A DNA stretch of 3,255 bases from a virus (Duplodnaviria; Heunggongvirae; Uroviricota; Caudoviricetes), in IMG/VR virus record IMGVR_UViG_2563366800_000004. One strand, written 5' to 3'. Below the pieces are notes generated by a model. It was not told the origin of the DNA. It was given only the letters and a program-made list of their open reading frames with translations, and did no database searches. Position numbers and translations under genes: made by a program. Positions within the stretch are counted from its first letter, which is position 1; every line of letters begins with the position of its first letter. Shown piece by piece: positions 217-3,255 of this stretch.

Positions 217-713
217 TGCCTCCATCATTACGAAAAGCCGTTGCTGCTGCTATTGGTGGCGGAGCAATTGCTATAGCATCAGTGTTAATCACTGGCCCAA
301 GTGGTAACGATGGTCTGGAAGGTGTCAGCTACATACCATACAAAGATATCGTTGGCGTATGGACTGTATGTCACGGGCATACAGGAAAAGACATCATTCC
401 CGGTAAAACGTATACCGAAGCAGAATGCAAAGCCCTCCTGAATAAAGACCTTGCCACGGTAGCCAGACAAATTAACCCGTACATCAAAGTCGATATACCG
501 GAAACAACGCGCGGCGCTCTTTACTCGTTCGTCTATAACGTGGGCGCAGGCAATTTCAGAACATCTACTCTTCTTCGCAAAATAAACCAGGGCGATATCA
601 AGGGCGCATGTGACCAGCTACGTCGCTGGGCATACGCTGGCGGTAAGCAATGGAAAGGCCTGATGACTCGTCGTGAGATTGAGCGTGAGGTCTGTTTGTG
701 GGGGCAACAATGA
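216..713 (+). CDS. R: SAR (signal-anchor-release) endolysin, T4-lysozyme-like muramidase, 165 aa
   Basis: ORF 216-713. The N-terminus [27 protein letters not shown] is a Gly/Ala-rich, weakly hydrophobic segment after a short basic stretch, typical of a SAR domain. Counting residues gives Glu35, Asp44 and Thr50 ([18 protein letters not shown]), the spacing of the T4-lysozyme/R21 catalytic triad. A purine-rich RBS GAGAGGTG (203-210) sits 5 nt upstream of the ATG. The start overlaps the holin stop (TAATG). Confidence 0.9.
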
Positions 714-751
714 GCAGGGTACCGGCGATCCGGCGCGTGAGTTCACCATGA
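710..751 (+). pseudogene. Rz (i-spanin) start stump: 13 codons then stop
   Basis: ATG at 710-712 overlaps the endolysin stop TGA (711-713) as ATGA, the usual R/Rz arrangement. The first codons (ATGAGCAGGG, Met-Ser-Arg) resemble the lambda Rz start as I recall it, but the frame stops at 749-751 and the downstream sequence is capsid-gene 3' end. No Rz1 lipoprotein ORF is present. Confidence 0.45.
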
Positions 752-1621: not shown

Positions 1622-1632
1622 AAGGGGGATGT

Positions 1633-1761
1633 ATGGCCATAAAAGGTCTTGAGCAGGCCGTTGAAAACCTCAGCCGTATCAGCAGAACGGCGGTGCCCGG
1701 TGCCGCCGCAATGGCCATTAACCGCGCTGACAGACAATACGCAGGGGGCAACAGGTCTTGA
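1633..1761 (+). pseudogene. Truncated lambda Z-like tail-completion gene: about 31 authentic N-terminal codons, then out-of-frame junction sequence and stop
   Basis: ATG 1633-1635 is preceded by AGGGGG (1623-1628). The translation [31 protein letters not shown] matches the lambda gpZ N-terminus as I recall it, then continues as [11 protein letters not shown] and stops at TGA 1759-1761. Intact Z is about 192 aa. Confidence 0.6.
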
Positions 1762-2671
1762 GTTATACGAGGTGTATAACAACGGATATCCAACAGCGTA
1801 TGGAAATATCATTCACCTGAAAGGGATGACAGCCGTTGGCGAAGGTGAGTTACTCATCGGCTGGAGTGGTACAAGCGGTGCTCATGCTCCGGCATTTATT
1901 CGTTCACGACGGGATACGACCGACGCAAACTGGTCGCCGCGGGCGCAGCTTTACACCTCGGCTCATCCTCCTGCAGAGTTTTATCCAGTCGGCGCACCAA
2001 TCCCGTGGCCATCAGATACCGTTCCGTCTGGTTATGCCCTGATGCAGGGGCAGACTTTTGACAAATCTGCCTACCCGAAACTTGCAGCCGCTTATCCGTC
2101 AGGCGTGATCCCTGATATGCGTGGCTGGACGATTAAGGGCAAGCCCGCCAGTGGTCGTGCCGTATTGTCTCAGGAACAGGACGGCATAAAATCGCATACC
2201 CACAGCGCCAGCGCATCCAGTACTGATTTGGGGACGAAAACCACATCGTCGTTTGATTACGGCACTAAATCCACGAATAACACTGGTGCGCATACCCATA
2301 GTTTAAGTGGCAGCACGAATGCAGCTGGTAATCACAGCCATAGAGATGGCCGTCGATTTAACCCCAGTGTTTTTAAAGATACTTATCAATATGGTTATAC
2401 AAGCTCAGGTCAAAATACCTGGGGTGTACAAGGCTCAGTAGGTATGTCTACGGGGGCGTTAGCTAATACCAGTACAGATGGTAATCATAGCCACTCACTG
2501 TCCGGCACCGCAGCATCTGCAGGTGCACACGCACATACTGTCGGTATTGGTGCTCATACGCACTCCGTTGCGATTGGTTCACATGGACACACCATCACCG
2601 TTAACGCTGCTGGTAACGCGGAAAACACCGTCAAAAACATCGCATTTAACTATATTGTGAGGCTTGCATAA
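1727..2671 (+). pseudogene. stf: C-terminal ~314 codons of a side tail fibre (Stf) gene, including the receptor-binding tip with HxH motifs; no start codon of its own
   Basis: The frame with codons at 1730, 1733 and onward reads ...[23 protein letters not shown]...[56 protein letters not shown]...[31 protein letters not shown] and stops at TAA 2669-2671. The PIPWP block and the [11 protein letters not shown] terminus are as I recall for lambda/Rac-type Stf C-termini. The frame stays open upstream only as far as a TTG at 1649 inside the Z stump, with no convincing RBS. The first in-frame ATG (1826-1828) has GGG immediately adjacent, which is poor spacing. Confidence 0.8.
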
Positions 2672-3255
2672 TGGCATTCAGAATGAGTGAACAACCACGG
2701 ACCATAACAATTTATAATCTGCTGGCCGGAACTAATGAATTTATTGGTGAAGGTGATGCATATATTCCGCCTCATACAGGTCTGCCAGCAAACAGTACCG
2801 ATATTGCACCGCCAGATATTCCGGCTGGCTTTGTGGCTGTTTTCAACAGTGATGAGGCATCGTGGCATCTCGTTGAAGATCATCGGGGAAAAACCGTCTA
2901 TGACGTGGCTTCCGGCGACGCGTTATTTATTTCTGAACTTGGCTCGTTACCGGAAAATGTCACCTGGTTATCGCCGGAAGGGGAATATCAGAAGTGGAAC
3001 GGCACAGCCTGGGTGAAGGATACGGAAGCAGAAAAACTGTTCCGGATCCGGGAGGCGGAAGAAACAAAAAACAGCCTGATGCAGGTAGCCAGTGAGCATA
3101 TAGCGCCACTTCAGGATGCTATAGATCTGGAGATCGCAACGGAGGAAGAAACCTCATTGCTGGAAGCCTGGAAAAAATATCGGGTGTTGCTGAACCGTGT
3201 TAATACAACAACTGCACCGGATATTGAATGGCCAACAGTACCCATTATCGAATAG
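2671..3255 (+). CDS. tfa: Tail fibre assembly protein (Tfa), 194 aa
   Basis: ATG 2671-2673 overlaps the stf stop (TAATG). The protein [54 protein letters not shown]...[30 protein letters not shown] matches my recollection of lambda Tfa (orf-194) with scattered substitutions. RBS-like GAGG (2659-2662) lies about 8 nt upstream. Stop TAG at 3253-3255 is the last codon of the window. Confidence 0.9.

Follow-up and report, generated by a model that had tools for sequence, protein, structure and literature searches.

Prophage remnant at att-lambda

The stretch of DNA analysed in the current study (3,255 nt, hereafter the window) is 100% identical to nt 3135091–3138345 (minus strand) of E. coli PCP06171 (NZ_CM129872.1), and is present at full length in one of 5426 complete E. 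coli genomes. The locus is a prophage remnant of ~6.5 kb at att-lambda, between ybhC and ybhB-bioA, with the order ybhC, int, xis, two small ORFs, IS3, essD, rrrD, Rz', 'E, FI, FII, Z', 'stf, tfa, after which come a diguanylate cyclase gene and then ybhB and bioA. This order is that of a lambda prophage minus large pieces. The window covers the part from essD to tfa, as follows (window positions):

1–216, + strand: essD-type holin (phage 21 S family); ORF, Pfam Phage_holin_2_1 (E = 2e-35), annotated as essD
216–713, + strand: rrrD-type lysozyme; ORF, Pfam Phage_lysozyme (E = 9e-46), annotated as rrrD
710–721, + strand: Rz stump (ATGAGCAGGGTA) ending at junction 1, with TA at nt 720–721; intact sister prophages have ATGAGCAGGGTAACCGCGATT
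721–816, + strand: 3' end of the major capsid gene E (lambda nt 7065–7160), from alignment to lambda and annotation
858–1256, + strand: FI (DNA packaging), intact; lambda alignment, Pfam Packaging_FI (E = 5e-59)
1268–1621, + strand: FII (head-tail joining), intact; ORF, Pfam Phage_attach (E = 1e-19)
1622–1632, + strand: native Z ribosome-binding region, AAAGGGGGATGT ahead of the ATG, identical to lambda
1633–1726, + strand: Z stump, 31 codons plus 1 nt; the ORF runs on into stf-derived sequence as far as TGA 1759–1761
1719–1726, no strand: crossover, an 8-nt microhomology, TAACCGCG, common to Z and stf; TA 1719–1720 is the recurrent breakpoint (see below)
1719–2671, + strand: 3' third (codons 707–1023) of a side tail fibre gene (stf) of the mEp460/Qin type; frame 2, Pfam Collar and Phage_fiber
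2671–3255, + strand: tfa (tail fibre assembly), intact; overlaps the stop codon of stf at its start, with GAGG 8 nt upstream of the ATG; Pfam Caudo_TAP (E = 2e-43)

The remnant is a defective lambdoid prophage, in which genes resembling those of lambda follow the prophage order, at a known attachment site flanked by host genes, and it is dead: the tail, terminase, portal and capsid genes and the early region are gone (there is no Nu1, A, W, B, C, D or U–J), Z, stf, E and Rz are truncated, and an IS3 insertion is present. Taken by itself, the junction between Z and stf is ordinary prophage decay, a textbook scar of a defective prophage.

The Z–stf junction

Window nt 721–1726 correspond to nt 7065–8070 of lambda (J02459) at 99.5% identity and, as lambda Z occupies nt 7977–8555, the Z start codon falls at nt 1633. 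The Z stump of 94 nt differs from lambda Z by two substitutions, its identity ending at nt 1726, and it matches positions 1–30 only of the 190-position Pfam profile Minor_tail_Z (PF06763; residues 3–32 of the 42-residue ORF), far from a full-length match. From nt 1719 to nt 3234 the window corresponds to stf and tfa of phage mEp460_ev081 (LR597641, from nt 21211) at 97.1% identity, and the stf breakpoint lies at codon 707 of the uninterrupted 1023-codon mEp460 gene (nt 19092–22163). The N-terminal part of Stf is absent, while collar and fibre repeat domains are kept behind no credible start. A three-way alignment places the crossover inside TAACCGCG (window nt 1719–1726), which is native both in lambda Z (context GGCCAT-TAACCGCG-TTGC) and in intact stf (context GGTCGGG-TAACCGCG-CTGAC). 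The segment missing between the two, ~13–14 kb in all, comprises the rest of Z (from codon 32), the genes from U to lom, and stf up to codon 706.

An earlier note on this DNA, made without database searches, had described an authentic Z stump of ~31 codons at nt 1633–1726, joined out of frame to the C-terminal part of Stf, and its coordinates prove right to the base by lambda alignment and Pfam. Z is read in frame 1 (1633 = 1 mod 3) and ends at TGA 1759–1761, giving a 42-codon ORF, while the stf fragment lies in frame 2 (1649 = 2 mod 3), open to nt 2671 and offset from Z by +1. The loss of the whole tail module, also claimed there, is borne out: U, V, G, T, H, M, L, K, I, J and lom are all absent from the window, so that no tail can be made. 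The alignment to lambda Z and stf fixed the breakpoint and brought to light the 8-nt microhomology, which the note had missed.

The junction is a real deletion scar rather than a chance match or an assembly artefact, because an independent metagenome contig (L159) carries an identical Z–stf junction, at 99% identity over 2.5 kb, and the same Z position has been reused in other complete genomes: PSJ-16 has the junction of the window minus 45 nt, and FCI55 and CP61_Sichuan have related junctions at the same Z position. In PCP06171, PGAP labels the Z and stf pieces as pseudogenes. Of 5426 complete E. coli genomes, just one contains the exact 141-nt junction, which might raise the suspicion of a faulty assembly or a laboratory construct, but with the same junction in an unrelated contig, a 45-nt-shorter derivative in PSJ-16, and a gene order colinear with that of a lambda prophage at its normal attachment site, this explanation can practically be dismissed.

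Comparison with orf-314 of lambda

While frames and missing tail module were correctly read in the earlier note, its suggestion that the breakpoint lies at or near the boundary of lambda orf-314 does not hold. Direct comparison with lambda nt 21029–21973, which orf-314 occupies, rules this out, since orf-314 resembles the window only from about nt 1991, and the first ~90 codons of the stf fragment are not homologous to it. Nor is the orf-314 ATG a gene boundary, as it is merely the first ATG in a frame that has been open since lambda nt 20819. The match in size (317 codons in the fragment, 314 in orf-314) is a coincidence, because the breakpoint is at codon 707 of an uninterrupted 1023-codon gene. 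Lambda PaPa, with its orf-401 and orf-314, resembles the window in having a C-terminal stf piece detached from the N-terminal part and followed by tfa, but there a 1-nt frameshift interrupts an otherwise complete stf, whereas in the window two thirds of stf have been deleted.

A recurrent breakpoint in stf

When genomes were searched with the junction, the matches of many began at the same stf position under differing upstream annotations. In six genomes that were retrieved, the sequence ...TAACCGCGCTGACAG is joined, at the same base, to a portal gene, a terminase gene, J, the ynfO/cosR region (in E. coli C), a tape measure gene and a Rac gene. All upstream partners found are joined at TA, and they comprise portal, two types of terminase, Nu1/A, E, major head protein, tail tube, H, L, I, J (two sites), the end of lom, the cosR/ynfO region and the Rac gene.

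An exact-pattern scan with the 24 nt that adjoin the site on its right, across viral contigs, metagenomes and genomes, returned ~186–190 loci. The intact stf site, cttcaaaaggtcgGG TA (A/G)CCGCG, is kept in 148, and the ~38 with a foreign left flank fall into 23 classes, ~21 of them independent, every one joined at TA. Events were counted by junction class and not by contig, as many contigs are clonal relatives, and the scan covered a 23-nt stretch in which junctions 1–20 nt further left were detectable, only junctions near the anchor being visible. The sole variant left flank, in L033, begins ~15 nt upstream and leaves the site itself intact. For 18 classes the native partner is known from lambda or mEp460, and because all of these are colinear with the phage map, the events are deletions. 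TA stands at the crossover in 16 of the 18 native partner sites (TG and CT in the other two); TA makes up 3.2% of the dinucleotides in these regions, which gives a binomial p of 1.6e-22. The microhomology is mostly just TA or GTA, the 8 nt of the window being the longest. The consensus of the partner flanks, CGGT-TA-TCCG, and the stf site, CGGG-TA-ACCG, both fit the palindrome CGGNTANCCG, the former being drawn from 16 sites in which single positions are weak (p 0.01–0.1).

The same position recurs among complete E. coli genomes, 1270 of which match a 180-nt query centred on the site. The match covers the site fully in 818, and in ~450 the best match starts not more than 3 nt from TA (exactly at TA in 19 of 22 sampled rows). 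All K-12 derivatives belong to the latter group with nohA as the partner, the nohA–stfQ junction of K-12 Qin lying at exactly the stf TA used in the window. On its stf side, the deletion ends at a site-specific hot spot, shared with at least 20 other independent prophage deletions.

The cryptic lambdoid prophages of K-12 (Qin, Rac and DLP12) resemble the window remnant in being defective and in having kept a 3' fragment of stf together with an intact tfa. In Qin the order is nohA, stfQ, tfaQ, pinQ, with the nohA–stfQ junction at the TA described above. Unlike Qin, which lies in ydfJ, the window remnant sits at att-lambda; its upstream partner is of the lambda type (E', FI, FII, Z'), its essD and rrrD are of the DLP12 type, it has no pin gene, and it carries a diguanylate cyclase gene as cargo.

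Two other origins for a fixed right-hand end were considered and rejected. Insertion of a cassette, instead of deletion, is contradicted by the remainder of the partner gene never being found downstream of tfa. The end of an insertion sequence does not account for it either, as the left flanks are all phage DNA colinear with lambda or mEp460, and no IS element is present at any junction. Reciprocal products were sought in a scan anchored on the left, and one genuine case emerged, L121, in which the left side of the stf site is joined inside tfa; a second candidate, L119, proved to be a chance match of 17 nt.

The same motif in Z and Rz

The motif in Z (lambda nt 8063, TAACCGCG) is itself a deletion end in five events:

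Window and contig L159: the Z–stf junction described above
PSJ-16: Z TA joined to a TA that lies deeper in stf by 45 nt
FCI55: joined to stf nt 20579, overlap TAAC
CP61_Sichuan: joined to stf nt 21608, overlap TA
L148: lambda A nt 1647 joined to Z, with the right half of the motif kept

TAACCGCG has one copy in lambda and one in mEp460, and both are deletion ends.

A further copy lies in Rz. Sister prophages at att-lambda have an intact Rz with ATGAGCAGGGTAACCGCGATT, which shares an identity of 11 nt with the stf site, and in two of them (L126 and L127) the intact Rz contains GGGTAACCGCG, where the window instead continues with lambda E from nt 7065/7066. Junction 1 of the window (nt 720–721), ...CAGGGTA|CCGGCGATCC, fuses the Rz motif to lambda E. 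With an anchor on the left side of this motif, a scan found ~95 intact copies and four junction classes, junction 1 included, all at TA. In one of these, represented by L208/L219, Rz is joined to xis-int in inverted orientation, and the event looks like an inversion. Both deletion scars in the window lie on copies of one motif. Neither the stf hot spot nor the position of the Rz–E junction on the same motif had been noticed in the earlier note.

TA is also common at junctions elsewhere in these loci. Among 23 other resolved deletion junctions, ~13 cross over at TA, TACC, TAAC or GCTA, and four more have TA in one parent. Some secondary sites recur, namely lambda nt 697 (TGA-TA-CCGGGG) four times and mEp460 nt 1909 (AGC-TA-TCCGG) twice. 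No direct Rz–stf fusion was found in 5426 genomes despite the 11 nt common to both sites.

Possible mechanisms of the deletions

Window nt 1622–1830 are best read as the scar of an internal deletion of ~13–14 kb at the stf hot spot, and we would give this reading a probability of about 0.85. The segment from Z codon 32 to stf codon 706, with U through lom, was removed and the ends were joined at TA inside TAACCGCG. The motif (C)GGG-TA-ACCG(CG) in stf and the TAACCGCG copies in Z and Rz recur as deletion ends that are exact to the nucleotide. A conservative exchange with a 2-bp overlap would best account for this, and breakage and rejoining would link a preferred site to secondary sites resembling it, as with serine recombinases at quasi-sites. 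The suggestion is based on the following properties of the junctions: the ends are fixed to the base, and TA is common to both partners; at each junction the base before TA is that of the partner (–1) and the base after it that of stf (+1), nothing being lost or gained; the flanks are weakly palindromic, including the half-sites that were lost in the deletion; and nearly all products are deletions, one looking like an inversion.

Ordinary illegitimate recombination between TAACCGCG copies, mediated by microhomology through replication slippage or alternative end joining, with the recurrence of TA reflecting a fragile or pause-prone sequence, is a serious rival, although it appears the less likely of the two, and part of the data would suit it. 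Microhomology amounts to a perfect 8 nt at the window junction and to 2–7 nt at others, every event whose parent is known is a simple deletion, and a fixed break in stf coupled to a requirement for 2 nt of homology would by itself yield TA partners, a caveat that applies equally to the conservative exchange. On the other hand, most partners share just TA or GTA, a weak overlap of the AT-only kind and the opposite of what annealing would prefer; the right-hand end has never been eroded by a single base in ~21 events; and the match of the lost half-sites to the palindrome, as well as the inversion-like junction at the Rz site, would not be expected. Single-strand folding of three motif sites gives energies no better than those of shuffled sequence, and a hairpin or cruciform at the sites was rejected as a cause on the same grounds. 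The 11-nt identity between Rz and stf, which homology-driven events should favour, has never been used, and its disuse in the 5426 genomes is a caveat against the conservative exchange as well.

The parallel that can be drawn for the conservative exchange is with Cin of phage P1 and its quasi-cix sites (Iida and Hiestand-Nauer 1986/1987, as cited in PMC4134206). In both cases there is one preferred site with many secondary ones, the secondary sites share the 2-bp crossover dinucleotide with weak similarity in the flanks, and this dinucleotide now and then has a single mismatch (TG, CT, CA). The TA motif, CGGNTANCCG, differs from the Cin type, TTATCNNAAACC-NN-GGTTTNNGATAA, and here the products are almost all deletions instead of inversions and no recombinase is known to act on the motif. 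Deletions with one end fixed at an enzyme site and the other variable, at sequences of weak similarity, are also known from lambda Int and from illegitimate recombination at the nick sites of rolling-circle origins (M13, pC194). The fixed end in stf, in contrast, contains neither an att core nor a replication origin, the overlap is 2 bp and not the 7 bp of Int, and the motif is active in three different genes.

Another candidate explanation is that the Pin-type invertases (Din family) of Qin, Rac and e14 are responsible, acting at a pix site in stf and at quasi-sites as Cin of P1 does. The pinQ gene adjoins tfaQ both in Qin and in phage mEp460, a pin gene lies beside tfa in Rac too, and PinQ is active in vivo (PMC12529663). 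In stf the sequence GTCTTCAAAAGG TC GGGTAACCGCGC matches a canonical 26-bp crossover site of an E. coli prophage (sites from PMC4134206) at 15 of 26 positions, the TC core included, and this relic site is at the homologous place in the fibre protein; the choice of quasi-sites by Cin according to the central dinucleotide, as cited in the same source, would also be in keeping. The relic core TC is, however, 4–5 nt to the left of the observed TA, and the junctions lack the GGG expected from cleavage there. When aligned around TA, the flanks agree with the consensus of Din half-sites at none of the nine specified positions. There is no inverted partner site in mEp460 or at the window locus, the copies of the motif in Z and Rz have no pix-like surroundings, and the att-lambda remnant of PCP06171 has no pin gene in its annotation. 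With the core off TA and the inverted partner missing, the hot spot was rejected as a crossover site of the Din family (26 bp, 12-bp inverted half-sites TTATCNNAAACC, 2-bp core), and the involvement of Pin enzymes is improbable.

Several other activities were considered and set aside. IS30 makes a 2-bp target duplication and uses near-palindromic targets; its hot spot LHS (lambda ~33272–33290, TCGCCAATAAAAGTGGCGA) is unlike CGGNTANCCG, and the junctions, as mentioned, are free of IS elements. Exchange by a type II topoisomerase with a 4-nt stagger predicts that the –1 and +1 bases come from one parent, which is not the case here, as the two are invariably of different origin, –1 being the partner's and +1 that of stf. 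The junction patterns fit neither a tyrosine recombinase with a 6–8-bp overlap nor an integron-type crossover at G|TT. Lambda cos has GGTTAC in common with the complement of the motif, which was judged a chance resemblance.

Returning to the conservative exchange, it could be the work of a site-specific activity of E. coli or its lambdoid prophages that has so far gone unrecognised, breaking and rejoining DNA at TA in CGGNTANCCG, with GGGTAACCGCG in stf and Rz and TAACCGCG in Z as its best sites. By repeatedly excising the morphogenetic genes and sparing the stf C-terminus and tfa, such an activity may have been a main route to the defective prophages of the Qin, Rac and att-lambda types, K-12 Qin included. 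We put this forward tentatively, its chances being somewhat short of even.

Expression of the stf fragment

The stf frame is open from TTG 1649, and its first ATG is at nt 1826. A purine run resembling a Shine-Dalgarno sequence lies 0–2 nt before each of these, too close for normal spacing, in agreement with the earlier note in that the fragment has no convincing start. A promoter scan found nothing promoter-like upstream of the fragment, and the counts over the whole window did not exceed those in shuffled sequence. The late promoter region (Q/pR') is gone as well, because IS3 lies 152 nt upstream of essD. Lacking its own promoter, start codon and ribosome-binding site, the stf fragment is most probably a pseudogene. 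Ribosomes initiating at the intact Z start would make a 42-residue peptide and stop at nt 1761, and, as far as can be judged from the DNA, non-translation of the stf fragment, as supposed in the earlier note, is plausible and its expression unlikely.

A functional junction can nevertheless be imagined, in which a +1 frameshift or re-initiation after the 42-codon Z' ORF, or a start at ATG 1826, would provide a free receptor-binding Stf fragment maintained by selection, with a possible role such as blocking phage adsorption. The Z start and its Shine-Dalgarno sequence are intact, as is tfa; the Z' ORF ends in UCU UGA (nt 1756–1761), where a +1 shift would enter the stf frame, with AGGGGG upstream at nt 1743–1748; PGAP annotates the equivalent ATG-1826 ORF of a sister genome as an intact protein of 281 aa; and portal–Stf and tape-measure–Stf fusions in other strains are in frame. 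The programmed +1 site of the prfB type is CUU UGA with a Shine-Dalgarno sequence 3 nt upstream, and the window departs from it in having UCU and a spacing of 8 nt. Both AGGGGG and UGA are ordinary stf coding sequence, and the ~21 junction classes are mostly out of frame. In favour of a function, adsorption of T2 is inhibited by chimeric e14 Stf proteins (PMC12529663). Still, with nothing promoter-like upstream of the fragment, the Q/pR' region lost, and the purine run only 0–1 nt from ATG 1826, a selected function for the junction seems highly improbable.

Significance for prophage decay

Prophage decay by deletion is a phenomenon of a known kind; what appears to be new is the site-specific component, the recurrent TA hot spot, K-12 Qin included. 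The searchable literature contains no description of this motif or hot spot, which is weak evidence of novelty given that most older subscription journals lie outside it. The breakpoint in the window is not random, being common to at least 20 independent deletions in three prophage families, among them that of the reference strain K-12. Since these deletions share a hot spot that is exact to the nucleotide, the inactivation of prophages in E. coli is partly directed and sequence-specific rather than purely random. If an enzyme is responsible, it would represent a new factor in prophage domestication and in the evolution of tail-fibre modules, and the motif would predict where lambdoid prophages break.

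Deletion junctions on a shared motif

At junction 1, the other deletion scar of the window (708-730, TA at 720-721), Rz is cut off after its initial 11-12 nt (ATGAGCAGGGTA) and fused to lambda E at 7065/7066. The sister att-lambda prophages with intact Rz carry GGGTAACCGCG at this position, an 11-mer identical to the hot site in stf, and both scars of the window therefore lie on one motif.

A relative of junction 2 occurs in the Qin prophage of PSJ-16 (L002 8996), where the Z'/'stf layout is that of the window but 45 nt shorter (compared with window 1718-1762), the TA of Z being fused to a second TA in stf (GAGT-TA-TACG). This form, present in only one of the 5426 complete E. coli genomes, reflects either another event at the hot site, which had been retained, or the Z site having been used independently.

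The left ends of other deletions also recur. The lambda Nu1 sequence TGA-TA-CCGGGG (L011 696-701) is the left end of four different junctions and AGC-TA-TCCGG in mEp460 terL (L012 1909) that of two; secondary deletion sites are used repeatedly. At one class of Rz-motif junction (L208 11191, L219 1034) the Rz stump ends at the motif TA and abuts an xis-int-att block in inverted orientation, an arrangement consistent with an inversion, not a deletion, at the Rz motif.

Similar sequences elsewhere

A gix/hix-like sequence, TTATCCATAAACC TC GTTTTTACGGGG, is found near gnsB/ydfO in Qin-type prophages, distant from stf, and may be an orphan site of the invertase Pin:
L002 (PSJ-16 Qin) 2782, gix/hix-like sequence
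L008 1730, gix/hix-like sequence
L012 (mEp460) 44801, gix/hix-like sequence

Lambda cos (L011 48490-48502 / 1-12), with the sequence CAGGTTACG / GGGCGGCGACCT, has a complement, CGTAACC, similar to the hot motif GGGTAACC; the resemblance was judged to be due to chance.

Reading frames across the stf junctions

The deletion at the stf TA preserves the reading frame in some strains, giving portal-Stf and tape-measure-Stf fusion ORFs (L005 2077-3411; L009 2050-3456), the former annotated in RefSeq as an intact 'phage portal protein'. At window 1743-1761, AGGGGG is followed after 8 nt by UCU UGA, which closes the 42-codon Z' ORF, and a +1 slip at this point would lead into the stf frame. The likeness to the prfB frameshift site is loose, as both codon and spacing are wrong. 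Within the WSPWAQLY stretch, the stf fragment has CGG (Arg) at window 1939-1941 where PSJ-16 Qin has TGG (Trp), a change that fits relaxed selection on a pseudogene.

Flanks of the prophage remnant

The sequences bordering the window in PCP06171 are:
L001 13686-14848, flank
L001 18329-19660, flank

An IS3 element, 152 nt upstream of essD, takes the place of the entire early and Q region. Directly after tfa, within the remnant, lies a gene for a sensor-domain diguanylate cyclase which, since both sister prophages (L126, L127) carry the same gene, looks like a cargo (moron) gene.
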